From: Chloroflexota bacterium
GTDB lineage: Bacteria > Chloroflexota > Dehalococcoidia > GIF9 > UBA5629
Direction of reading: 5' to 3'
DNA length: 51,765 nucleotides
Assembly (NCBI GenBank): GCA_016865895.1
Contig: VGNY01000002.1
Span: 1-51,765 of the forward strand
Part shown: positions 1 to 28,543 of the stretch, piece by piece
Layout of the letters: each line of letters opens with the position of its first letter
How positions within the stretch are numbered: the stretch's first letter is position 1
Made by a program: the position numbers and the translations under genes
The notes under the pieces: generated by a model
Told to the model about the DNA's origin: nothing
Seen by the model: the letters and a program-made list of their open reading frames with translations, nothing else
Database searches by the model: none

Positions 1-194
1 AGTCATCTGGAAGATGCTCATGCTTGCAGAGCAGAGATTTTGCAGATTGGATGCGCCAGAGAAGATCAAGCTCGTCTATCTCGGCATTGACTTGCATGAG
101 AGTCAAGAAGCTAAGCGGGAGGAGGTACTTGCCGTCGCCTAACCTTTTTACACACCTATTGACAAGACCTCTCGTGGCGTAAGCCCTGTCCGTC

Positions 195-1259
195 TTATTT
201 ACTTACTCTTAGCGTCCCTATCCAGAAATCCACCTGATTTCCTTTGGGACATTCTGCAATGTACTTCCACTGATAGTCACCTGAAGTCGTGAACCAGTAC
301 CTGGCATTTATAGCCACCTTTCCCTTACTCGGAACAGTTACCTTACCATCCGTTGGATAGATAACGAAATTGATTTCATTCCCAGGGCGGTTGGGTGATG
401 ATTCCAGGCGCCAATATATTGGCAATTCAAATGATTCGTAGTTTGCTAAAGTGAATGAAAAAGCTGACGAACGATAATCCAGTGACGTTCTAATTTTCGC
501 ATCGTTTGGCAACTTTACGTCTTCAATCTTCGCGTTCGGCTTGAGTACCGGCTGTTGAGCTGGCTCAGGCATTTGGCCGGACCCAATCCTTAACCACACT
601 CTCAGATCACCCTCACCTTGTTCGTCATGACGACCCACCCCCCAGTTCAATGATGGCGACCAAGTATGCCAATAGTATCCGATAAGCTCCTTATCCGGGA
701 CTGTGGTCTTCAGGATGTCTAGGCCAGGAAATCCAAGCCATTTGCTAAGCACATCTATCTGAGCCTTTGTGACTGGTCCCTTGTTTATGTTGTAGGCTGC
801 AACATAGACTGTCAGTGTCCCGGTTGCCGAGCCAGTGAAGATTACTGGGTCCGTCTTTTCTCTAACTGCCCTAACCTGAAAGAAGTCCATGTCAAAACCA
901 GGAATGCCCTCTGGTGGTATAGAGCGTGTGGCAAGATTCTTTTGTGCATCGCTCACTACTACAACCAATTGAATCTTCGCTAGAGGTTCCCCACCAACTT
1001 GGGGTATCCAACGAGTGTTCCGGACGCCGAAATAGTCAAGGGCAATCCTGATAGATGGTGATTGCACTGGGGCTGGCGTTGTTGTGGGTCGTTCTGTGGA
1101 AGTTGAGGCCGGCGGTTTAGTGGTAGTATCAGATGGTTGTGTTGTTTGTATCGGTATTGAAGTAGGTTCAATGCAACTTGCAACGATGGGTAAAAAACCT
1201 AGAAGATAAAGAAGAGGCACGATTCTTAGCCATCTCATCGGACTATTCCTTGTTGCCAT
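195..1259 (-). CDS. secreted/lipoprotein-like hypothetical protein
   Basis: 354-aa ORF. N-terminal hydrophobic signal ending in Cys (LPIVASC), then a Thr/Pro/Ser-rich linker and a beta-rich body. No catalytic motif recognised. Confidence 0.6.
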   Translation of the reverse strand: MATRNSPMRWLRIVPLLYLLGFLPIVASCIEPTSIPIQTTQPSDTTTKPPASTSTERPTTTPAPVQSPSIRIALDYFGVRNTRWIPQVGGEPLAKIQLVVVVSDAQKNLATRSIPPEGIPGFDMDFFQVRAVREKTDPVIFTGSATGTLTVYVAAYNINKGPVTKAQIDVLSKWLGFPGLDILKTTVPDKELIGYYWHTWSPSLNWGVGRHDEQGEGDLRVWLRIGSGQMPEPAQQPVLKPNAKIEDVKLPNDAKIRTSLDYRSSAFSFTLANYESFELPIYWRLESSPNRPGNEINFVIYPTDGKVTVPSKGKVAINARYWFTTSGDYQWKYIAECPKGNQVDFWIGTLRVSK

Positions 1260-1444
1260 AAAGATTAGCCGAGTATCTGCTCAGCGGATAACGACTGATG
1301 CTTGCAGCCTAATTCAGGCCCCAGTAAACCAATTATAACTGATTTTACAATTATTGTCCAGTATGGTCTATGTAACTCTATTTGTGCCTAATTCACTTCA
1401 GATAGCTAATCTATGTTCTAGCTCAATAATAGTGGAGGAATTAG

Positions 1445-1642
1445 GTGGCCAAAAGAGAGAAGAACAAAAGCCCGTCGGGTATAGAGCGAATATTTCTAAC
1501 GTTTCAGGAAACCCAAGAGTTCCTGGGAGTCAGCCATCAAACGCTGTATAAACTGATGAGCCAAGGGTTGCCATCACACAAGATTGGAAAGAAGCGAGTC
1601 TTTCTCAAGGATGACCTTATCCAGTGGATCAAGAGCCACTAG
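1445..1642 (+). CDS. excisionase-type helix-turn-helix DNA-binding protein
   Basis: GTG start 7 nt after GGAGG. LTFQETQEFLGVSHQTLYKLMSQG...FLKDDLIQWI matches the small excisionase/MerR-like HTH proteins of integrated elements. Confidence 0.7.
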   Translation: MAKREKNKSPSGIERIFLTFQETQEFLGVSHQTLYKLMSQGLPSHKIGKKRVFLKDDLIQWIKSH

Positions 1643-1882
1643 CAGTGGACCTATTCGGGACCCGCTAATACTTACTCATGTGCATTTGCCTTGACGCTTT
1701 TGCTGAAAAAGACAACTCTAGTCCCTCAACATACGATGACTAATCGACGGTGGTGCAATCGACCGTCGCCGTTAGATAGCTCGGCGGTAGCTCACCAAGG
1801 ACGGCCGACTCCTCAGGAATACAGAGAGGTTTTGCCACAAAGAAGACCTGATTACATCATATAAGACAATATTGTTTAGAAC

Positions 1883-1911
1883 TTGACCTGGTCAGAAAAA
1901 TCGGTCATAAT
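1883..1911 (+). promoter_or_regulatory. candidate sigma70-type promoter TTGACC-N17-CATAAT
   Basis: Hexamers read directly at 1883-1888 and 1906-1911. The GGTCA repeat array overlaps it. About 160 nt upstream of the 2080 start. Confidence 0.4.
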
Positions 1912-1940
1912 AGTCAAAAGGTCGGTCAAATAGACGGTCA
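1890..1940. repeat. iteron-like GGTCA array
   Basis: GGTCA at 1890, 1903, 1924 and 1936 plus an AGTCA variant at 1912 (9-13 bp spacing). Inverted TGACC copies lie at 2049-2069, next to the start of the 2080 gene. Confidence 0.6.
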
Positions 1941-2079
1941 GATGTTTATACCCCGTTCCTTATAGCGGTCGCTCGATAACTGCGTGTGGTGGCATCTGAC
2001 TGGGTGACCCCCTCTCTGGTGGGCTCTGGGTAAGAGTGAGAGTTTTTCTGACCGACCGATGAAATGACCGAGGTGGCAT

Positions 2080-3162
2080 ATGAAACAGATTCCCTCTCAG
2101 ACCAAGATGGAAGTCTTAGACCTTTATCTTCAAGGGCTTTCTGGTGATAAGGTATCAGAAAAGACCGGAGTTTCCAAAGGAGCAGTAATATCCATTATTA
2201 AAGACGCCAGAGAGGGAAAATACCCTCAACTTGAGCTCAAAGGCAGAATTGATGAACTTCATAACGTGGCTGTGAGATTAAGAAAGCAGAACCTAGACTT
2301 GACTCAGACGAGGTTGGGGTTTAGCTTTCTTCAGCGGCTGCTGGGTATAGGAGTTGAGTTGGACAGGCTGGAGGAGTGGATTGCGTTTTGCTCTGAAATG
2401 AGTCCTACCCCGACAGAGGACTTCGTCCCTGCAGCTATGGAGCTACTCAATGTTGAGAGAAAAACCGGCTTAAGTTATGCTGAGTTGACCTCGCACATAA
2501 AGGGCCTCACCGATAGACGACAGAAGCTCATTGATGCCGTAGGGGAGCTTGAAGCCAAAGAGAGAAGGCACGGTGAGCTTAAGGCGGAAATAGAGAAGAA
2601 CGAGAAAAGACTTAGCCAACTCACATTGGAGAGGGAACGAATGGAGGCTGGAGTAAACTCCCTGAAGAGCTTTATTCAGAAGCGCTCTGAGGAGCTTGGT
2701 ATTCCTCAAGGTGAGCTTGAGGCAAAACTTCAGGAACTGGCCAATCTTGATGCTGAGATAGCCTGTAAGCGCAGTGAGTGCAACCGCTTACGAGGTGAGA
2801 TAGAAACGCTAATTGAGAGGCATGAAAAACTCTCTTCTCAAATGGAGAAGGCTTCAGCAGACTTTGATCAAGACATTAAACTAATCAGACAAGCGAGGCA
2901 GGAGCTTACTGAAATAGCTGAGCTGAAGGGGAGGTATGAAGCGGAGGTCAAGGATATGGAATGGGCTAAAGGAATACTACCTTTTCTCCGCTACCCAGAT
3001 AAAGTTGATGACCCTGAGTTTAAGCTTGCCTCAATCGTGGTTGGCTGTATTGACAAGTGGCTGCCAAAACAGAGCCTGGGCTTTTCCTGGGGGATAAAAT
3101 GGGGTGATATCACTAAACATGTCCAGTCAAAGAGAACGCAGTTTAAACAGTTTCGTCAATGA
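2080..3162 (+). CDS. HTH plus long coiled-coil protein, function unknown
   Basis: N-terminal HTH-like segment (LSGDKVSEKTGVSKGAVISIIKDA) followed by ~200 aa of Glu/Lys/Leu heptad-rich sequence. ATG preceded by GAGGTGG. Confidence 0.65.
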   Translation: MKQIPSQTKMEVLDLYLQGLSGDKVSEKTGVSKGAVISIIKDAREGKYPQLELKGRIDELHNVAVRLRKQNLDLTQTRLGFSFLQRLLGIGVELDRLEEWIAFCSEMSPTPTEDFVPAAMELLNVERKTGLSYAELTSHIKGLTDRRQKLIDAVGELEAKERRHGELKAEIEKNEKRLSQLTLERERMEAGVNSLKSFIQKRSEELGIPQGELEAKLQELANLDAEIACKRSECNRLRGEIETLIERHEKLSSQMEKASADFDQDIKLIRQARQELTEIAELKGRYEAEVKDMEWAKGILPFLRYPDKVDDPEFKLASIVVGCIDKWLPKQSLGFSWGIKWGDITKHVQSKRTQFKQFRQ

Positions 3163-3658
3163 AACTCGTGAGCTAAAAGAGAAGGTGAGACAGGTCATTC
3201 CCTCATATATAGCCTTGTTTAAGGAGGTATCAGCCTTACCTGAGGAGTTTGAACGTCACTTCTGGGTTTCTGGTGTTGAAGCCTTGCTGCAAACGGTCAG
3301 GGCAGACTATGACAGTTTTCAGGCTCAAGCTCAGAAAGCAGACTTCATTGGCAAGTTCATGACAGTGGGAATAGACATTGTCCTAAAGGCAGGAGGGATG
3401 CAGCCAATAGCGCCACCGTCTCTCCCGAAGCTCGGTGTAACCATTCCACCATCGGGCAAAATAGAACCCGATTGGGAAGGTAATCCGTATAGAGAGCCCG
3501 GAGCGATTTTCGCGACGTATGAGGAGTTTATGGCAATCACCCAGAAGCTTAAAGATAAGTTGCTAAAGGGGACAATTGAGCCAACTAGTGAGGAGGAAAT
3601 CCCCAAGCTGGTGCATAGCCTGGCTCTAAAGTCAGCTCAAGGTTCTCCTGACGAGTAA
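3104..3658 (+). CDS. hypothetical protein
   Basis: 184-aa ORF overlapping the previous gene by 59 nt. The true start may be the ATG at 3119 or a GTG just after 3162. No motif recognised. Confidence 0.5.
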   Translation: MISLNMSSQRERSLNSFVNETRELKEKVRQVIPSYIALFKEVSALPEEFERHFWVSGVEALLQTVRADYDSFQAQAQKADFIGKFMTVGIDIVLKAGGMQPIAPPSLPKLGVTIPPSGKIEPDWEGNPYREPGAIFATYEEFMAITQKLKDKLLKGTIEPTSEEEIPKLVHSLALKSAQGSPDE

Positions 3659-3670
3659 CGGAGGTATGCA

Positions 3671-4765
3671 GTGAACCTATGCAGGATTTGCTTTCAGGAA
3701 GTAACAGGCGGCGTCCCTGTCCCTTCTTGGCATTGTGGTGAAAAAGATGACCGCGCTTCTGTTCACGAGGAATGTCTTGCCAGACAGGTTTCGGATTTTA
3801 TCAATGAAGACCCTCAAAAAGTGGGGCTTCTTCGCTATCTTGTAGAGTTTGAAGAAAGTCACGCTCCTGAAGATTGGGCAAGGGATATATCTGGTGCCAC
3901 GGCAGATGTATCATGGACATGGGACAAGGTAGGAATACCCACATCGAAAATCATGCCTCTGGTCAATGTCGGTCTTTTGGGCATTGTCTTCTCTTCACGA
4001 AGTTCAACTTATTATGCCCTGGTTGGGCGCAAGGTGATTAAGAAAGTGCTCGAGGAAATTAAGAGAGTAAGGGAAAGAGAAAGCCTTCTACCAATTCCCG
4101 ATAAAGAAATAGAAATCCCTGAGAACCTTTTCTCAACGGTTTCCGGTTACGAGGAGATAAAAGCCTTCCTTAAGAAAGTGCTTAAAGCAGAAAGGTTTCA
4201 TGTTCTATTGGTTGGACCTCCTGCTTCAGCGAAGACTGTATTTCTTCTGGAGCTGGCACGCCTACCTGGGAGTTTCTACTGCCTAGGCTCGGCGACTACT
4301 AAGGCTGGAATTGCGGAAATCCTCTATGAGTAAAGGCCGAGCATTCTCCTCGCTGATGAGATAGATAAATTTGAGAGTAAGGACATAGCTATTCTTCTTT
4401 CCCTGGCTGAAACAGGCATTGTAAGAGAGACCAAGGTATCAAAACAGAGGGAAGCTAGGCTAAACACGAGTATCTTTGCCGCGGCTAACTCGGCCAAAGG
4501 TATGCCGAAGGAACTTCTGTCAAGGTTTAGGGTGCTCTATCTACCAGAGTACACCAAAGAAGAGTTCATTCATGCCTCTACGAAGGTGCTTGTCGAAAGG
4601 GAGAATGTTGCCTCTGATCTAGCTGCTTACATAGCTGAGCAGACTTGGGAAGTATCAAGAGATGTGCGAGAAGCTGTAAGGATAGGGAAGATATGCCGGA
4701 GCCGTGATGAAGTGGATGAAGATATTAGGCTGATAAGAAGATATGGGGCAACCATTGTACAGTAG
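3671..4765 (+). pseudogene. Zn-finger + MCM-like (helix-2-insert clade) AAA+ helicase interrupted by one in-frame TAA (4331-4333)
   Basis: ORFs 3671-4333 and 4502-4765 are in the same frame. Translating 4334-4501 in that frame gives RPSILLADEIDKF (Walker B) ... ETGIVRETKVSKQREARLNTSIFAAANS (sensor 1) with no further stop. Walker A is GPPASAKT, and an LLSRF Arg-finger-like motif follows. The N-terminus is CRIC..HC..HEEC. GTG start 6 nt after GGAGG. Confidence 0.7.
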
Positions 4766-4834
4766 CAGATAAGAATGATAAGAAGGCAAGGCAAGGAGGC
4801 GTAATTTAGCCCCCTCTTGCGCCTATACCTATCT

Positions 4835-4863
4835 TTGACATTTCGGAGCGACCCGGCTATACT
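4835..4863 (+). promoter_or_regulatory. near-consensus promoter TTGACA-N17-TATACT with no ORF downstream
   Basis: Hexamers at 4835-4840 and 4858-4863 with an exact 17-nt spacer. It fires into a non-coding segment that ends in a tRNA-like T-arm. Confidence 0.45.
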
Positions 4864-4927
4864 TGAAATCGGAAAGGAGGCAAGCGGTCTCCGCCTTTTC
4901 CACGGGCTAAATGGGGTTCAGGTGGTC

Positions 4928-4952
4928 GGCGGTTCAAATCCGCCCACCCCGA
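4928..4952 (+). other. tRNA 3'-end-like fragment (T-arm + 3' acceptor strand), candidate att site
   Basis: GGCGG-TTCAAAT-CCGCC followed by CACCCCG-A. No complementary 5' acceptor strand within 100 nt upstream, so this is not a complete tRNA. Confidence 0.45.
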
Positions 4953-5116
4953 TATCTGATTTTTCTCTTTTGGTCAGCTACAGGGCGTCACAGTAGGCGA
5001 CAAAGTCTCCAGACATGACATCAAACACACTGTAACCCAAAGGCAGTACACCTAAACTGAACGTCGGAACAATCAAGGCGCTATATCACAGGCTGATAAT
5101 ACAAGAGCTGTTTTGA

Positions 5117-6094
5117 TTACTTTTCAATAACCTGGATTTCTTGTCCTAAAGAATCGGAAAATTCTATGGTCACTTTGTCAATTGATGGGTCATCAGCAGT
5201 TTCAATATCAAAATTGAATACCTGTCCAGGCATAGTAGGACCGTGATGAACATATATTTCGGATTTTACAAGTGTGTTACCATGCCAACAGTTCATGGTA
5301 CATATCACACCTCTCAAAGTGGCACGACTGCTATTCCTTACTGAGCCCTTAATAAAGAGAAACTTTCTCATATTCACCGGCTCAACGTCAAAGCCCGAAG
5401 CATCTTCCGTCCTCCGCCCCCATTCAGACCATTGCAGTTCCAACACGTATGGCGACTTTGGCGCCGGTGTGACCAGAGTGTAATCTGTCGACGCGGCTTC
5501 GTTCCCAGCTTTATCCTTTGACTTCACCCGATAATGATAAATAGTATTAGGCTCAAGACCACTCAAGTTTATACTGTGGGTAGTAGTCAGATTCTCGTTT
5601 GAAGCGACCACAAACCCATAATCTGTAGTCTTCCCATACTCAACCTGACCAGTACTGGGTTCATTTGTTACCCAAGAGATAAGAACCTTTGTCTCTGATT
5701 CATACGAAGCTAGCACATTTGTAATCACAGGCGCCTTGACGTCAGGAGCCGGTGACGGTGCAGCACCGACACTAATAACAACAGACTTGCTGACAGTACC
5801 TCCCGCATTTGTAGCAGTTAAAGTGTAGGCAACAGTCTTAGTAGGCGACAACTTCATTGACCCGGTAGCAGCAACATTACCTATACCCTGGTCAATACTC
5901 ACAGCGGTTGCCCCTTCAATAGACCATCTTAAAATTGTTGACTCACCAACCGTAATTTCACTCGGTGCAGCACTGAAATCAACAATAGCTGGTGGTTTCG
6001 GTCGACAGGCAGTACCCGAACAACAAATCAATAGGAGAACTAGCCACCAAAAAGAGACCAAATACCAGCTATATCTGGCTTTGACGTCAATCAC
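5117..6094 (-). CDS. secreted Ig-like/fibronectin type III domain protein
   Basis: Signal/anchor with a Cys cluster. The central segment VLISWVTNEPSTGQVEYGKTTDYG...LSGLEPNTIYHYRVKSKDKAGN is FN3-like. Confidence 0.7.
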   Translation of the reverse strand: MIDVKARYSWYLVSFWWLVLLLICCSGTACRPKPPAIVDFSAAPSEITVGESTILRWSIEGATAVSIDQGIGNVAATGSMKLSPTKTVAYTLTATNAGGTVSKSVVISVGAAPSPAPDVKAPVITNVLASYESETKVLISWVTNEPSTGQVEYGKTTDYGFVVASNENLTTTHSINLSGLEPNTIYHYRVKSKDKAGNEAASTDYTLVTPAPKSPYVLELQWSEWGRRTEDASGFDVEPVNMRKFLFIKGSVRNSSRATLRGVICTMNCWHGNTLVKSEIYVHHGPTMPGQVFNFDIETADDPSIDKVTIEFSDSLGQEIQVIEK

Positions 6095-6124
6095 TTATGC
6101 CCCCCGGATGGGAGTTTGCTCACC

Positions 6125-6628
6125 TTATCTCCCCAATAGCTTGAATGTTGAGATTATTGAATTGAATTTATGATACTCGTATTCATTCTTGAACGCTGCT
6201 GTGTCCACTTTGTAAAGTCGCTTCTCAGTCTGCTTAAAATAAGCCTCTCCATGATAGAGGCCATACTCAGCCTCCCAATCATAGGAGAGATACCAATCCC
6301 AGAAATCCTGCCTGGGCTCGTTTTCAAACTGTGTCAATTCATTATGCGCCGTCCCCAGAGCCATAATCCAACGGTTAGCAGCATCTCGTGCAGCCATAGG
6401 CGCTGCTACATCTATCATAACCGAAGCTCGGCGGGTCGGAGATACTATAAAGCATTTTGTCCCATCTTCAGACACCTCGACTTGCCAATTAGATGGATAG
6501 CTTATAGCGTATCCCATCTCGCCATTCTTATACGTGGCATAACCAGGCTTACCACAAGCAACAGACGAACTAAGTAACAAAATAATAAGTCCCAAGAACG
6601 AAACCCAACACTTTCTGTAGCTTCTCAC
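6125..6628 (-). CDS. small lipoprotein, PsbP/DcrB-like fold suspected
   Basis: Signal peptide with lipobox-like SSSVACG. YAISYPSNWQVEV resembles the FSVKYPKDWAKQP module seen at 20867 and 34842. Confidence 0.6.
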   Translation of the reverse strand: MRSYRKCWVSFLGLIILLLSSSVACGKPGYATYKNGEMGYAISYPSNWQVEVSEDGTKCFIVSPTRRASVMIDVAAPMAARDAANRWIMALGTAHNELTQFENEPRQDFWDWYLSYDWEAEYGLYHGEAYFKQTEKRLYKVDTAAFKNEYEYHKFNSIISTFKLLGR

Positions 6629-6686
6629 TTAAACCTCCTTATAGTATTACTAGCTAATACTTTTGTCTGATTATACAGCGTTGTAG

Positions 6687-6935
6687 ATAAAGTGTCACCT
6701 ATCATGTGAACAATTTCACGTGCCTGCCGAACGGCTTATACCTATAGCAACCAAAATAGTCGCGACAATTTGCTAGCATTCGCAGATTGCAGTGCAAGCA
6801 TGCAAAGAGGCTATCATTCGGGGTGTTGATACACCAATAAGAGAAAGACTGGCTCACGAAAACTTGCTGTTCCGGAAGCTATTTATCACCAAAGTCTGTT
6901 TAGAGAGCTCTCAAGTGTTTGGTAGGAGAAAATAG
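6687..6935 (+). pseudogene. 3' relic of an enoyl-CoA hydratase (crotonase) gene
   Basis: One frame reads ...HVPAERLIPIATKIVATIC*HSQIAVQACKEAIIRGVDTPIRERLAHENLLFRKLFITKVCLESSQVFGRRK*. This parallels the C-terminus of the intact crotonase at 13026 (VVPREQL..IAKKIANKSPAIL..AFLEKREP). There are in-frame TAGs at 6774 and 6933, and no N-terminal part. Confidence 0.45.
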
Positions 6936-6971
6936 CCCACGCTGGAAGAACTGATAAGGTGAAGCCAAATC

Positions 6972-7436
6972 TCAAATAGGCTCAAAATACTCGATATCGC
7001 GGATATCCCCCTCAGGTTTATCCCTCCATTTAGCCCTCACCGTCATGCCAATCTTGATTTTATCTTTTGCTTTTTCAATGTTGGAGAGATCCACGCCGCC
7101 GATGAAATGAGATATTGCAGTATCGGCACCATCCAAATCTATCAACCCTGCTATGTACGGGGGCTCCATAGGCTGCCCGGAAAATTCAAAGGTAATCAGT
7201 GACCAAGTCTTTACTTTACCCTTGTCGCTCACTTGAACCCACTCTGTAGCATCCTCAAAGCAGCGAGGACAAAACTTCCTGGCCGGAACAAGCACACGCT
7301 TACACTTAGGACACTTAGTTCCCATTATTCTCTTATTTTTAAACTCTTCAAAAAACCTAGTGATTACCGGGCCCATTGCCCATCTGTAGGGCAACGCAAT
7401 CTTTCCTTCTATAATTCTTGATTCCGCTTTTGCCAT
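6972..7436 (-). CDS. DUF35 Zn-ribbon/OB-fold acyl-CoA-associated protein
   Basis: CPKCKRVLVPARKFCPRC zinc ribbon followed by an OB-fold-sized C-terminus. Sits downstream of two thiolase-fold genes. Confidence 0.85.
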   Translation of the reverse strand: MAKAESRIIEGKIALPYRWAMGPVITRFFEEFKNKRIMGTKCPKCKRVLVPARKFCPRCFEDATEWVQVSDKGKVKTWSLITFEFSGQPMEPPYIAGLIDLDGADTAISHFIGGVDLSNIEKAKDKIKIGMTVRAKWRDKPEGDIRDIEYFEPI

Positions 7437-8630: not shown

Positions 8631-9770
8631 CTATTTACCTAGAATGACTACGGAGTGATGTTGCCCGGCAAAGCCATAAGTAGCATGTGCCAGTGCTGTT
8701 TTCACACTGGACACTTGTCTTTTTTCGGCTTTGCCCATCACTTGAAGAGCGGCCTCAGCAATTCTAAAAAGCCCCCTGGCGACATATGGATTCATAGCTA
8801 AAAGACCACCGGATGGATTAACAGGTAGCTCACCATCCATAGCAGTAACTCCGCTATCTATTAGTTTTGCCCCTTCGCCATCTTTGCAGAAGCCTAATTG
8901 CTCATACCACAGGAGTTCCTGAAACGAATAGGGCTCGCAAATCTCCGCCACATCTATCTCTTTTCGTGGGTTCTTAATGCCAGCCATATCATAAGCCTTC
9001 TTAGCTGTTTTTCTCAGCACACCATCAAGCAAGTCCCTGTCACCAAAGAATTGATGGTCAACGCACCAACTGACCCCTTTAACCCATGCCGGATTTTTGG
9101 TTAACTTCTTCGCCTTTTCCTCAGATGCCAGAAGCATAGCACAAGTGCCATCAGAATATGCCGCACAATCTAATGCCTTTATCGGATGTGCCATAACCTG
9201 TGACATCAGAACCTCATCAATAGTAACCTTTCCCGCCTTTTGAACATAAGGGTTATTTATGGCATTGCCGAGATTTTTCACCACTACCTTTGCCGCGTGT
9301 TCCTCAGTTATTCGGTACTTCTCCGTATACAGTCTTGCTTGCATAGCTGCCGCGGAGATATCATCAAGCGCAATCGGACGCTGGAAAAAAGGGTCAGCAT
9401 ACAGATTGGTCAATGTGCTTAAGCTTGGAATCTCGGATGACTTGGTTATGGCATGAACTAAGGCATTATCGAAATGCCCGCTCATCACCCTCATCAGTCC
9501 ATAGATAAAACCTGCGGCACCATCTTCCGAGGCTTTGGAGGTGTCTTTCAGATAAGCTCCTATAGCATCTAGGTAATAGGTATTGGAGCAACTAATACCC
9601 TGCCAGAAGTCTGAAGAGGAAGAAATGATTGTGCCCAGCTTTTCACGTTTCATGCCAACCTGATTTAGTACATCTTTGGTTACTTCATAACTCAGATCCC
9701 GAATGTTTTTGTTTAAAGCATCGTTATGTCCTATCTGGGCAACGGCCACAATGGCTACTCTATTTGCCAT
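8631..9770 (-). CDS. thiolase-like protein lacking the nucleophile Cys
   Basis: Same fold and length as the neighbour. SKASEDGAAG at the nucleophile position (Ser) and AMNPYVARG instead of GHP. AAGGAGG RBS. Confidence 0.8.
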   Translation of the reverse strand: MANRVAIVAVAQIGHNDALNKNIRDLSYEVTKDVLNQVGMKREKLGTIISSSSDFWQGISCSNTYYLDAIGAYLKDTSKASEDGAAGFIYGLMRVMSGHFDNALVHAITKSSEIPSLSTLTNLYADPFFQRPIALDDISAAAMQARLYTEKYRITEEHAAKVVVKNLGNAINNPYVQKAGKVTIDEVLMSQVMAHPIKALDCAAYSDGTCAMLLASEEKAKKLTKNPAWVKGVSWCVDHQFFGDRDLLDGVLRKTAKKAYDMAGIKNPRKEIDVAEICEPYSFQELLWYEQLGFCKDGEGAKLIDSGVTAMDGELPVNPSGGLLAMNPYVARGLFRIAEAALQVMGKAEKRQVSSVKTALAHATYGFAGQHHSVVILGK

Positions 9771-10091: not shown

Positions 10092-11450
10092 GTGGGTTCT
10101 CGCATGCTCAAATCTATACTAATCGCTAACCGTGGGGAAATTGCACGGCGGATAATCAGGACAGCCAAAACACTAGGCATCGAAACCATAGCCATACATT
10201 CTGATGCAGACGAAACGGCTCTGTTTGCCCAGGAAGCAGATAAAGCTATAAGAGTTAGCGGCGCTAAACCTAGAGACTGTTACCTTAATATTGACAATAT
10301 TATTGGAATAGCCAAAGAGGTGAAAGCAAGTGCCATACACCCCGGATATGGATTCTTATCAGAAAGGTGGGAATTCGCCCAAAGATGTGAAGAAGAAGGC
10401 CTCATATTCATTGGACCAAAGTCTGAGGTAATCCATAGAATGGGCGACAAAGCTCGCTCCCGAGAAATAGCTACCAGCCTGGGTATACCGATCCCACCAG
10501 GGAGTGGCATCTTAGGCAGTATTGAAGAGGCAAAAGAATGGGCAGCAAAACTTTCCTTTCCTGTCATTTTCAAGGCATCAGCTGGAGGTGGAGGCATAGG
10601 CATGCAAAAGGTGGAAACAATGGAAGAGGTAGCAGAAGCATTCGAACAGGCTTCAAATCGGGCTAGATTGGCTTTCGGCGACGACAGAGTCTACATCGAA
10701 AAATATTTAGAGTCACCTCACCACATAGAAATCCAAATTCTGGGTGACAAAAACGGTGATGTGGTCACCTTTCCCGAAAGAGAATGTTCGGTGCAAAGAC
10801 GGCATCAAAAAGTAATCGAGGAATCACCCTCACCTTTCGCCACCACTGAGCTAAGAATGGGACTCAGGCAAGCAGCTAAAAGACTAGCTCAAGAGCTTGG
10901 ATATACCAATGCCAGTACTGTAGAATTCGTCGTCGACAAAAACCGAAACTTCTACTTTCTGGAAATAAATACCAGGCTTCAGGTAGAGCACCCTATTACG
11001 GAGATGATAACAGGCCTCGACCTTGTGGAACACCAAATCAAGATTGCTTCTGGCAGGCCCTTATCAATTGGGGAAAAGGACATCAAATGGAAGGGATGGG
11101 CCATTGAAGCTCGAATTTATGCTGAGGACCCGGAAAACTTCTATCCCTCCCCAGGCAAGCTAATCTCCTATGTAGAGCCTCATGGTGATGGAATAAGAGT
11201 TGATTCTGGCTACAAGGCCTGTGACACCATCAGCCAGTTTTACGACCCTCTGATTGCCAAGCTAATCGTTTGGGGTGCAGATAGAGACAAAGCTATAACG
11301 AGAATGCTAAAAGCTCTAAATGATTATGAGATCACTGGCATTAAAAACAACATCCTCTTCCTGAAGAAAGCTTTTGATTCCGCAATGTTCAAATCGGGAA
11401 CTTACGATACACATTTCATATCAAGGTTAAAGGAGATGAAAAATGGGTGA
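10092..11450 (+). CDS. accC: biotin carboxylase subunit of an acyl-CoA carboxylase
   Basis: ILIANRGEIARRIIRT, ATP-grasp loop GGGGIGMQKV and EINTRLQVEHPITE. An alternative ATG start lies at 10104. Confidence 0.9.
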   Translation: MGSRMLKSILIANRGEIARRIIRTAKTLGIETIAIHSDADETALFAQEADKAIRVSGAKPRDCYLNIDNIIGIAKEVKASAIHPGYGFLSERWEFAQRCEEEGLIFIGPKSEVIHRMGDKARSREIATSLGIPIPPGSGILGSIEEAKEWAAKLSFPVIFKASAGGGGIGMQKVETMEEVAEAFEQASNRARLAFGDDRVYIEKYLESPHHIEIQILGDKNGDVVTFPERECSVQRRHQKVIEESPSPFATTELRMGLRQAAKRLAQELGYTNASTVEFVVDKNRNFYFLEINTRLQVEHPITEMITGLDLVEHQIKIASGRPLSIGEKDIKWKGWAIEARIYAEDPENFYPSPGKLISYVEPHGDGIRVDSGYKACDTISQFYDPLIAKLIVWGADRDKAITRMLKALNDYEITGIKNNILFLKKAFDSAMFKSGTYDTHFISRLKEMKNG

Positions 11451-26575: not shown

Positions 26576-28543
26576 CTATTCAACAGTGCTGACTTTGACA
26601 CTTGTTATTATTGTCCCCGTTCGACCATCGCGGTAGGTAATCGGAGCTTCGACCTTCAACTCTTCCTTATCACCATAGAGTGCGTCTATCAAATAGCCAT
26701 ATCGCTCTTCGATGAAATCGCGCCGCAGCTTTCTGGTTCGTGTTAGTTCAGCATCATCAGCATCAAATTCTTTGTGCAAATTGACAAATCTCTTTATCCT
26801 CGTCCATTCAGGGAGGTGCCTATTAACCCTCAATATCGCGCCCTTTATCAGCTCAATGACTTCCGGCTTCTGGGACAAATCAGTGAAGGTAGTGTACGGG
26901 ATACGCTTGGCTTCAGCCCATCTTCCCACATTGTCTATGTCAATATTTATTATAACGGTGACAAAATCCTTGTCCTCGCTACCCACAATCAAGGCTCCTT
27001 TGATATAGGGGCTGAATCTCAATCTGATTTCAGCAAACTGTGGCGAAAACTTGCGACCACCGCTCAATTCCTTCAGATGGTCCATCCTGTCAATACAGAT
27101 GAGGTGGCCATGTTCTTCAATGTGACCGAAATCACCACTGAGATACCAGTCGCCCAGGTATTTTTCTTTGGTGGCTTCGGGCTTCCTGTAATAGCCGGCG
27201 AAAAGCATCTCGCTCCTGACCATAATCTCACCGTCGTCAGAAAGTCGGCATTCATACCCGGGCATGAGAGGACCACATGTTTCCGGCCGGACATCATCAT
27301 CAGGGTGAATGGTAACCAGCCCCATTTCTGTGCTGCCGTATAGCTGCTTGAGTTTTACTCCAAGAGCCTGAAAGTAACGGAAGATTTCAGGGCTTATTGC
27401 TGACCCAGCACTGTAGGCAATTCTGACCTTTAACAGGCCAACTTTATCCTTAAGCTGCCGAAAGACTACTAGGTCAGCAAGAGCATAAAGCGCTCGCCAC
27501 AGCCAGTTGGCCTTTTTCTCAGCTATTCTCAAGTCACCCACCTTGTAGCCTACCGGCAGGAAAATATGGTAAAGAAGTCTCCTCAGCGGAGCGGTGTCGA
27601 TTATCTTCGCCTGAATCAGCCGGCTTACACTTTCCCAGTTAGCCGGCCCCCAAAAAAGGATACCAGGCCCGATTTCCCTGATGTTTTCCAGTACCGTCTC
27701 CGGCTCTTCAGGAAAGTTTATTTCCATACCTGTAAGCAAGTTGGCACCTACTCCAAGCCCTTGTTCCGTTATCCAGGCCGGGGGTAAAAAAGAGACATAT
27801 TGCTCGTCAGCACGCCACTTGTCCACGGAGCCCCATGCCCTATTAGTTAGCTGGGATACCCTGTTCCTGAGCATGGCGGCTTTGGGTAAACCGGTAGTAC
27901 CAGATGTATACATGAAAAGGGCGATATCATCGCCGCTGGCCTTCTCAATATTCTCTTCAAATACGCCAGGATGGCTTTTTTCATAATCCTTGCCCAGCTC
28001 GATAACCTGGTCAAAGCTCATCAAAATCGGGTCGGCATAGTCACCGATAGGAGTCCCTTCATAGCCCAGTATCCCCTTGGGGTCCCAGAAAATGACCTTC
28101 TTCACCAGAGGCAGTTCATCTTTAAGAGGTGGATGCTCATTGCCTTCCCTATCTTTGTAAGGGACTAGAAACTTATCAACCTGCTCCTGGTCATGGGCTA
28201 TGACAAACTTAGATTCAGAATTCTCAACGTAATATTTGACCTCTGTAGGCAGACAATCAACGAATATACCGGTCACAGTTGCGCCCGCCGCACCAGCCGC
28301 CAACTCAGCCCAGAACCATTCAGGCTTATTTTCACCCAGTATCGCTACCTTATCTCCCCGTTCCAGACCACGGCTGATTAAGCCCAAGGAGAAACACTTC
28401 ACCTTTTCGTAGTAGTCCTTCCATGTATATGACTGCCAGATACCTCTGTCCTTCACCCGCATGGCCACTTTCTTGTCGCCCCACTTTTGATAGTTATATC
28501 TCAAATATTTTGCTGCAGTATCAAAAACCGGTGCTTCCACCAT
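26576..28543 (-). CDS. AMP-forming long-chain acyl-CoA ligase embedded in the ABC operon
   Basis: 655 aa with YTSGTTGLPKAAM AMP-binding motif. AGGAGGG RBS directly after the livG stop. Confidence 0.9.
   Translation of the reverse strand: MVEAPVFDTAAKYLRYNYQKWGDKKVAMRVKDRGIWQSYTWKDYYEKVKCFSLGLISRGLERGDKVAILGENKPEWFWAELAAGAAGATVTGIFVDCLPTEVKYYVENSESKFVIAHDQEQVDKFLVPYKDREGNEHPPLKDELPLVKKVIFWDPKGILGYEGTPIGDYADPILMSFDQVIELGKDYEKSHPGVFEENIEKASGDDIALFMYTSGTTGLPKAAMLRNRVSQLTNRAWGSVDKWRADEQYVSFLPPAWITEQGLGVGANLLTGMEINFPEEPETVLENIREIGPGILFWGPANWESVSRLIQAKIIDTAPLRRLLYHIFLPVGYKVGDLRIAEKKANWLWRALYALADLVVFRQLKDKVGLLKVRIAYSAGSAISPEIFRYFQALGVKLKQLYGSTEMGLVTIHPDDDVRPETCGPLMPGYECRLSDDGEIMVRSEMLFAGYYRKPEATKEKYLGDWYLSGDFGHIEEHGHLICIDRMDHLKELSGGRKFSPQFAEIRLRFSPYIKGALIVGSEDKDFVTVIINIDIDNVGRWAEAKRIPYTTFTDLSQKPEVIELIKGAILRVNRHLPEWTRIKRFVNLHKEFDADDAELTRTRKLRRDFIEERYGYLIDALYGDKEELKVEAPITYRDGRTGTIITSVKVSTVE

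Follow-up and report, generated by a model that had tools for sequence, protein, structure and literature searches.

The stretch of DNA analysed here (the window) comprises bases 1 to 51,765 of contig C2 in a metagenome-assembled Dehalococcoidia genome, G000, so that no further sequence of this contig lies to its left. Its left part, positions 1-4952, is very probably the attR-proximal part of a cryptic integrative element, that is, an integrated plasmid-like or virus-like replicon, residing in a tRNA-Pro(GGG) gene. An earlier note on the same DNA had listed five features in this part, all on the + strand, and these were confirmed from the sequence and the list of open reading frames (ORFs): a gene for an excisionase-family protein (Xis, 1445-1642), an array of GGTCA pentamers (1883-2071), a gene for a helix-turn-helix (HTH)/coiled-coil protein (2080-3162), a gene for a 184-aa protein (3104-3658), and a gene for a zinc-finger AAA+ ATPase (3671-4765). 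A sixth gene, absent from that list and likewise part of the inserted DNA, encodes a lipoprotein-like protein on the - strand (195-1259). The element closes with a fragment of a tRNA gene on the + strand (4910-4952), and the host flank begins at 4953.

The tRNA-Pro(GGG) integration site

The tRNA fragment was the starting point of the earlier note, which had recognised a T-arm, a 3' acceptor strand and a discriminator base at 4928-4952. These are present as claimed, and the complementary 5' acceptor strand, CGGGGTG, is absent from all of positions 1-6000. The identity of the fragment as a tRNA 3' end therefore stands, whereas its extent had to be revised: the true segment is longer, spanning 4910-4952, and repeats over 43 nt the positions 31-73 of tRNA-Pro(GGG), from the anticodon loop to the discriminator base. 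ARAGORN and Rfam called no tRNA at 4928-4952. The 3' end of a transfer-messenger RNA (tmRNA) was considered as another source of the fragment and rejected, because no tRNA, tmRNA or other Rfam family was found in 1-7000; the tmRNA of the genome lies on contig C73.

When the fragment was compared with all tRNAs of the genome, an intact tRNA-Pro(GGG) gene was found on contig C16 (27375-27451), of which the last 43 nt (27409-27451) match the fragment at 41 positions. The two mismatches form a compensatory pair in the T-stem, which reads GGCGG/CCGCC in the fragment and GCCGG/CCGGC in the intact gene. The intact gene encodes the CCA end; TAT follows the fragment instead. The assembly holds only these two copies of the tRNA-Pro 3' segment. 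A direct repeat stands at both borders of the inserted DNA, with one copy completing an intact tRNA.

A gene for a Xer-like tyrosine integrase of 331 aa, Int331, starts 117 nt downstream of the intact tRNA. It matches Pfam Phage_integrase (PF00589, E 1e-30), a SAM-like N-domain and a PHROG integrase family (E 4e-43), and all six catalytic-site residues (R, K, H-x-x-R, H, Y) can be read in its translation. The earlier note had expected the element to continue leftwards past the window, with its integrase and the intact tRNA elsewhere, and had proposed a search for an integrase beside a tRNA matching 4910-4952; both indeed lie together on C16 of the same assembly. Int331 is followed by a 290-aa Zn-ribbon ORF, a small ORF and a second tyrosine recombinase of 234 aa (Rec234), on contig C209, which overlaps the end of C16 by 127 nt. 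This left end of the element is confirmed by an independent JGI metagenome contig (L111), where the genes for PpiC, the integrase, the 290-aa ORF, a 77-aa ORF and the 234-aa recombinase are contiguous and the tail is identical to that of C209. Between the two att copies lie C16 from 27452 onward, C209 and window positions 1-4909, i.e. about 8.8 kb of assembled sequence plus a gap. An inverted copy (CCACCTGA) of the core octamer TCAGGTGG occurs twice in the 90 nt that follow the tRNA-Pro, together with GGTGGTCAGG (L002 8111-8200, on C16). On this arm, next to its own gene, the integrase may bind to these candidate sites.

Unoccupied sites, which the earlier note had suggested looking for, were found in both same-genus genomes searched. 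In the first (G001), the orthologues of two host genes are adjacent, separated by a 323-bp gap with only tRNA-Pro(GGG) in it: FN3, which here follows the fragment (5117-6094), and PpiC, which here precedes the tRNA on C16. In the second (G002), tRNA-Pro is followed directly by sequence that aligns with the window from 4953 onward. A four-way alignment fixes the borders exactly: attL agrees with the empty sites over its upstream flank and the tRNA's 5' portion and departs from them after the discriminator, whereas attR departs upstream of tRNA position 31 and has its downstream flank in common with G002. The native tRNA has the fragment's T-stem in G001 and that of the rebuilt gene in G002. The genus thus contains both variants, and the T-stem difference is compatible with one copy having been brought in by the element, without indicating which. 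Upon integration, the att copy of the element, with an encoded CCA and a T-stem variant of its own, would have made the tRNA whole again, leaving the displaced copy at 4910-4952.

The inserted genes are distributed as expected of accessory DNA. Of 202 genomes of the order, 19 carry the AAA+ gene, and neither of the two from the same genus is among them; the lipoprotein-like gene was found in none of 30 relatives, both same-genus genomes included. All the testable features by which tRNA-targeting tyrosine-integrase elements are recognised are present, and we regard integration at tRNA-Pro(GGG) as practically certain, as secure as it can be made without a closed assembly.

G000 itself has 2.61 Mb in 306 contigs, a completeness of 96% and a contamination of 8.9%. 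Its tRNA set is ordinary bacterial and includes tRNA-Sec besides the tmRNA. The same-genus genomes measure 1.5-1.7 Mb, and several tRNAs are duplicated in G000 (Ile-GAT three times; Thr-CGT, Ala-TGC, Ala-GGC, Leu-CAA, Gln-TTG, Lys-CTT, Glu-CTC and Arg-CCT twice each). The bin is probably a strain mix or rich in repeated mobile elements, and inferences across its contigs call for caution.

The GGTCA array and the genes around it

The product of the Xis gene (65 aa) matches Pfam HTH_17 (E 8e-13), scores 29.7 bits against the NCBIfam 'excisionase family' domain model TIGR01764 (cut-off 28.8), and matches excisionase families of PHROGs. It lies inside an integrase-bearing element, and homologues of 77-89% identity stand beside the AAA+ gene in five other Dehalococcoidia loci. 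By sequence, it is a candidate excisionase, or recombination directionality factor.

Downstream of it, GGTCA occurs in both orientations. Direct copies start at 1890, 1903, 1924 and 1936, with an AGTCA variant among them at about 1913, and inverted copies at 1884, 2005, 2049 and 2065. The pentamer or its complement is thus found eight times in 1884-2069, as against 0.49 expected from the window-wide density (Poisson P ~5e-8; ~1.5e-5 when corrected for all such windows). The first gene after the array encodes a 360-aa protein with an N-terminal HTH_23 motif (Pfam E 5e-4, under the cut-off), a long coiled coil and a conserved C-terminal part. Its homologues, 54-61% identical, occupy the same position in three other loci (L024, L025 and L037), and it is a candidate repeat-binding protein. 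The 184-aa protein, with a probable start at ATG 3119, overlaps the preceding gene, as do its homologues of 60-65% identity in L024 and L025. Profile searches of the PDB returned nothing informative for either protein, and both partners were found by alignment only in Dehalococcoidia loci. Archaeal counterparts were sought in the ESM Atlas and dropped: the search gave only feature-level look-alikes in Nitrososphaerota, which tblastn in archaeal loci did not confirm.

The arrangement recurs on the metagenome contigs L024 and L025, where an HTH/coiled-coil gene, an overlapping gene for a 173-aa protein and the AAA+ gene follow each other in the same order at 54-88% identity, with an extra 62-aa HTH_3 gene before the ATPase. 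Upstream of the first gene, both contigs carry 4-5 direct GGTCA copies, about 100 nt of intervening sequence, and 3-4 inverted copies ending at the ribosome-binding site; the sequence around the copies has diverged between these contigs and the window. In L024, the nearest intact relative of the module, the AAA+ gene is closely followed (11230-11300, - strand), inside a called 77-aa ORF, by a degenerate tRNA-Gly(UCC)-like sequence with good 5' two-thirds, an imperfect acceptor stem and no ARAGORN call, which may be an att remnant of the L024 element.

The last gene of the operon encodes a protein with a zinc finger, a winged-helix-like N-domain and an MCM/RuvB-like AAA+ ATPase. Its reading frame holds a TAA at 4331-4333 (codon 221), which is treated below. 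The read-through product (364-365 aa) matches Pfam MCM (PF00493) with 30.2 bits (cut-off 23.3), as well as AAA_5, whereas each half alone scores below the MCM cut-off. Homologues carry precomputed PF00493 matches, and 18 of them keep the Walker A motif GPPAxAK[T/S], the Walker B motif LL[A/L]DE[I/L/V]DK, the sensor-1 Asn (AAAN) and the LLSRF arginine finger. For the intact homologue P0004 (84% identical, from L024), AlphaFold gave a model with a pLDDT of 85.8, in which a zinc-knuckle-like start (CxxC...HxxC) is followed by a helical/winged segment with a short beta-wing, a linker, an AAA+ core and a helical lid. The model places a pre-sensor-1 beta-hairpin at residues 250-263, a feature that, along with the sensor-1 Asn and the SRF arginine finger, is expected of MCM.

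The ATPase family was searched for in one genome per species of GTDB, and 269 stretches were found to encode a relative. The best matches are from Dehalococcoidia/Dehalococcoidales and are full length, including the Zn-finger N-domain. The remaining relatives are overwhelmingly archaeal, with 35-45% identity over the AAA+ part, and come from Nitrososphaeraceae and other Nitrososphaerota (chiefly Nitrososphaerales), Thermoplasmatota, Bathyarchaeia, Aenigmatarchaeota and Thermoproteota. Thus, the family appears from these searches to be patchy in Dehalococcoidia and common in archaea. In a tree of 36 sequences, the Dehalococcoidia proteins form two clades with good support, plus a single long branch, in the midst of archaeal lineages; since the tree is unrooted and its backbone unresolved, we claim no direction of transfer between bacteria and archaea. 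In Nitrososphaerales loci, including L048, L081 and L100, an ORF of 216-309 aa precedes the ATPase (at ~9001-9650), and no integrase is evident nearby.

How might these parts work together? On balance, we lean towards a replication role, which we infer from the layout and the protein families. The array and the operon of three genes would form a replication module, in which the oppositely oriented repeats would be recognised by one of the DNA-binding proteins of the module. The ATPase would then act as an MCM/RuvB-type hexameric motor, either initiator or helicase, akin to SaPI Rep and SCCmec Cch.

Two further genes lie to the left of Xis. The 354-aa lipoprotein-like cargo protein has a signal peptide ending in a lipobox-like ...VASC and found no match in Pfam, PHROGs or NCBIfam searches. 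In L070, another Dehalococcoidia element, a 28%-identical homologue adjoins a homologue of Xis (83% identity). At the very start of the window, the contig cuts the 3' end of an ORF of 46 codons (2-142, + strand), also inside the inserted DNA. This ORF has no Pfam match, occurs nowhere else in the genome and found no counterpart in 76 genomes of the family. On these grounds, the idea that it is the C-terminus of a transposase was dropped.

Alternative readings of the inserted DNA

Several results weigh against, or fail to back, the interpretation of these 8.8 kb as a single integrated replicon with a replication module of its own. First, the middle of the element is missing. A contig-overlap walk (127 nt) gave no partner that joins the right end of C209 to the left end of the window, and neither two metagenome scans nor two exact-protein look-ups bridged the gap: a 40-mer near the left end of the window had no match in the metagenome contigs scanned, and the lipoprotein-like protein and Xis had no record in the look-ups. 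The attP junction of an excised circle was found neither among public metagenome contigs, by exact pattern, nor in the assembly. With the middle missing, one element rather than two in tandem is not proven. Second, the element is not set apart by composition, a comparison proposed in the earlier note, and this result speaks neither for nor against insertion. Its GC content is 0.469 (host, 0.472), its tetranucleotide distance is equalled or exceeded by 7.75% of equal-sized host pieces, and it is compositionally at home in the host lineage. Third, the array overlaps a promoter-like sequence (TTGACC-17-CATAAT, 1883-1911), part of the array region recurs upstream of a different small gene on contig C69, and the assembled parts hold no polymerase or primase. 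The array is therefore put forward as a candidate origin and/or operator; an operator role is equally possible, and the two are not exclusive. Fourth, the ATPase is not an MCM helicase in the full sense. It has no MCM_N or MCM_OB match in Pfam, and the helix-2 insert is absent from the model: about 40 residues separate Walker A from Walker B, they are modelled as one helix, and MCM alignments are gapped there. Moreover, MCM and RuvB are nearly tied. Foldseek returned both at about 1e-10 to 1e-8; VIA-align gave Z 17.4 for MCM cores (rmsd 2.1 A, 144 residues, 23-27% identity) and Z 16.3 for RuvB (rmsd 5.3 A, 203 residues including the lid), a difference within 1.1 Z; and profile searches of the PDB gave 1.4e-9 for archaeal MCM and 3e-8 for RuvB. 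For lack of the MCM N-terminal/OB domain and the helix-2 insert, and because of the near-tie, the protein is classed as an MCM/RuvB-class AAA+ motor with an MCM-type P-loop signature, outside the MCM helicases proper, and any helicase activity is putative. The label 'MCM-like' in the earlier note thus holds for the ATPase core and fails beyond it. Finally, many of the archaeal homologues, in Nitrososphaerales, are stand-alone ATPases of about 235 aa with no obvious mobile-element genes around them; these may be conserved chromosomal genes rather than genes of mobile elements.

Near the gap, a repeat of 112-134 nt is shared at 97-100% identity by several contigs (L111 4890-5023, C209 2054-2131, C294 815-926, C148 1558-1691 and C117 ~1726-1765), and independent assemblies break at it, probably because it is common to several contigs. 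A repeat or an insertion sequence within these elements may have its edge there.

Much of this evidence would also suit an element that is truly integrated and has no replication module, which we hold to be possible. GGTCA would then be the operator of an autoregulated operon, and the ATPase a RuvB-like or Orc/Cdc6-like remodelling or regulatory ATPase for recombination, partition or defence. The inverted copies abutting the ribosome-binding site fit such an operator, as do the overlap with the promoter and the recurrence on C69; the RuvB scores, the JGI annotation of homologues as RuvB, the missing MCM domains and the ordinary chromosomal look of the archaeal genes fit such an ATPase. Set against it are the conserved linkage of the gene with Xis and integrases in patchily distributed elements, and two parallels from known mobile DNA: oppositely oriented pentamers match the layout of SaPI origins (PMC9371898), and MCM-class ATPases with a DNA-binding domain on mobile genetic elements are documented as initiator-helicases (PMC9371898, PMC7581432). 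As to defence, PADLOC gave only coiled-coil noise and no defence-family match for the ATPase, and a defence-system reading was rejected.

It is unlikely that the window holds one end of a provirus, the unassembled middle of which would carry the morphogenesis genes of a non-tailed, budding or filamentous virus like IME1, with the lipoprotein-like protein as a virion or envelope protein. In favour, IME1 elements likewise integrate downstream of a tRNA and start with an XerCD-family recombinase (bioRxiv 10.64898/2026.09.15.751708), the secreted, lipoprotein-like cargo gene recurs next to Xis in L070, and the missing middle leaves room for such genes. Nevertheless, the assembled 8.8 kb contain no capsid, terminase, portal or pI-like ATPase gene, their PHROGs matches are to integrases and Xis only, and 2.9 million viral contigs of IMG/VR yielded just three weak relatives of the ATPase (23-30% identity). 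Three genes by which IME1 is recognised (criteria iii-v: primase-helicase, terminal Cro/C1 repressor and metallophosphoesterase coding sequence) are also lacking there. A virus of the IME1 kind was tried specifically and rejected: the sole Zot/pI-like match in the genome is borderline (20.8 bits; cut-off 20.3) and lies on an unrelated contig, and the L024 genes upstream of the module have no homologues in G000. That match (C48:8709-8960, L108) falls in a 499-aa ORF unrelated to those L024 genes.

The preferred reading of an integrated replicon must also account for the TAA in the ATPase gene, which the earlier note did not mention and which lies between Walker A and Walker B. Codon 221 is TAA here, CAA in L024 and CAG in L025. 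Glutamine is found in all close homologues, and a stop in none of the 17 aligned. The change from CAA to TAA is recent, and this copy is probably replication-dead: with its ATPase broken between the two Walker motifs, the element would be unable to replicate on its own and would be carried passively in the chromosome. We doubt that the stop is harmless, be it a sequencing or consensus artefact, a read-through codon, or the joint of a gene that works as two pieces. Such a view could appeal to codon differences that still look selected after the stop (48 synonymous and 22 non-synonymous, as compared with 70 and 40 before it), and to a downstream part as conserved as the upstream one (88% and 82% amino-acid identity to L024, respectively). 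Yet a Logan contig that was assembled separately and is reported from five samples has the gene truncated to the same 220-aa product, which makes a one-off consensus error unlikely, and no start codon with a ribosome site follows the TAA before 4502.

Two elements in tandem at tRNA-Pro(GGG), one with the C16/C209 integrase module and the other with the window's genes from Xis to AAA+, are improbable: the gap, the related elements at other tRNAs of the genome and the lack of an Int331-like integrase within 9 kb of most related AAA+ loci would allow them, but a tandem pair should have left a third copy of the tRNA-Pro 3' segment where there are two, and in another genome (G196) one and the same contig carries the AAA+ gene and, at a distance of 6 kb, a Rec234-type recombinase (60% identity).

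Sister elements and known systems

Between the ATPase gene and attR lies an outward-facing, promoter-like sequence on the + strand (TTGACA-17-TATACT, 4835-4863; 11 of 12 positions), followed by the 18-mer GAAAGGAGGCAAGCGGTC at 4872-4889. The same pair immediately precedes tRNA 3' fragments on contigs C253 and C294, which makes three attR ends in this genome. On C253 (L027, 430-700), the fragment is of tRNA-Gly(CCC), and on C294 (~440-600, - strand) apparently of tRNA-Lys(CTT); both start in the anticodon loop. C253 also has a different iteron-like array, with GTTTACC six times at 313-370. Counterparts of the integrase end are found on C69 (L026, 3409-4570 and 9523-11452), where two Int331-like integrases, 39-42% identical, adjoin a tRNA, tRNA-Gly(CCC) in one case and tRNA-Lys(TTT) in the other, and are followed by homologues of the 290-aa ORF, the small ORF and the second recombinase, in the order seen on C16/C209. 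Sequence comparison therefore points to at least two to three further related elements at other tRNAs of this genome.

The promoter lies on the att arm opposite the integrase and would therefore, after excision, read through attP into int. Expression of the integrase would be raised only in the circular form. ICEclc is said to hold a precedent: Sentchilo et al. reportedly described in 2003 a strong outward promoter, Pcirc, at the end opposite int that drives int only in the circular form. The geometry of promoter and int is the same here, and the likeness is drawn from that geometry alone. The 18-mer could equally be an arm site for Xis or the integrase.

Taken further, these observations would tentatively define an undescribed family of small integrative replicons of Dehalococcoidia, with at least three to four copies at different tRNAs in this genome, a cross-domain replication module and a circularisation switch. 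Should this be true, the Zn-finger/winged-helix mini-MCM-class ATPase with its GGTCA iterons would be a new link between the mobile DNA of bacteria and that of archaea (Nitrososphaerota, Thermoplasmatota and others), and the conserved outward promoter and 18-mer at attR a new switch that turns the integrase on only in the excised circle. Dehalococcoidia from anoxic lake or sediment habitats would join the short list of bacteria with MCM-class initiator ATPases on integrated elements, for which SaPI and SCCmec are known. A motor family common to many archaea also bears on how replication modules may move between the mobile DNA of the two domains, and the intact relatives on L024 and L025 offer a compact candidate replicon, an origin-like array and three genes, for bacteria without genetic tools. 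The present copy is of modest significance, being a broken relic, probably immobile for replication, with its middle unassembled. It does show that a missing integrase and an intact tRNA could be predicted from a 25-nt tRNA fragment by reading alone, and then verified across contigs and empty sites.

At the level of the protein, the ATPase shares with archaeal MCM and bacterial RuvB (PDB 4r7y, 6blb) the AAA+ core, the pre-sensor-1 hairpin, Walker A and B, the sensor-1 Asn and the SRF motif. Unlike MCM, it has neither an N-terminal OB/Zn domain nor the helix-2 insert and is about half as long; unlike RuvB, it has no RuvA partner and no RuvB context.

Among integrated elements, IME1 of Dehalococcoides comes from the same class of bacteria, and is found both integrated and episomal (bioRxiv 10.64898/2026.09.15.751708). 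It, too, lies downstream of a tRNA, starts with an XerCD-family recombinase and has a second recombinase inside. IME1 differs in its size of 21-28 kb, an archaeal-type primase-helicase, a terminal Cro/C1 repressor, a pI-like ATPase and a large metallophosphoesterase-like coding sequence. None of these genes is found in the assembled 8.8 kb, and it is the AAA+ gene that takes the terminal place there. What criterion iii asks for might yet lie in the unassembled middle; the window element is not IME1.

The remark in the earlier note that an MCM-type helicase would be uncommon on a bacterial integrated element is fair, although SCCmec Cch and SaPIbov1-type Rep2, which are grouped with the MCM helicases (SF6), provide precedents (PMC9371898, PMC7581432). 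Like SaPI and SCCmec (Cch/Cch2), the present element is bacterial and integrated and combines int and xis with a self-encoded AAA+ protein, their initiator/helicase. SaPI origins consist of pentamer or hexamer iterons in opposite orientations flanking a central region (PMC9371898), and the GGTCA array has the same layout. In SaPI Rep, however, the DNA-binding domain is C-terminal, whereas it is N-terminal here; the repeats here precede an operon of three genes instead of directly following rep, and the assembled parts show no primase partner. Nor do these parts, with the middle missing, contain genes for helper-phage induction or packaging redirection of the SaPI/PICI type. PDB searches with the ATPase gave no sequence match to Cch or Rep.

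In archaea, integrated elements are well known to encode replication proteins of the MCM, Cch-like or Orc1 type (PMC6563490). The cryptic integrated elements of thaumarchaea (Krupovic et al. 2019, PMC6563490) are similarly small, mostly <20 kb, target tRNA genes with a tyrosine integrase, and lack recognisable virion or conjugation genes; they carry MCM, Cch or Orc1 AAA+ replication proteins, and the ATPase family of the window has many archaeal members. The present element differs in its bacterial host, in an ATPase with a Zn-finger/winged-helix N-domain that is not a full MCM, and in partner proteins that alignment detected in Dehalococcoidia loci only. Therefore, the nearest bacterial analogues in function, by analogy and with no relation detected at the sequence level, are the self-loading initiator-helicases SaPI Rep and SCCmec Cch, while the nearest analogues by protein family, judged from sequence similarity, are archaeal.

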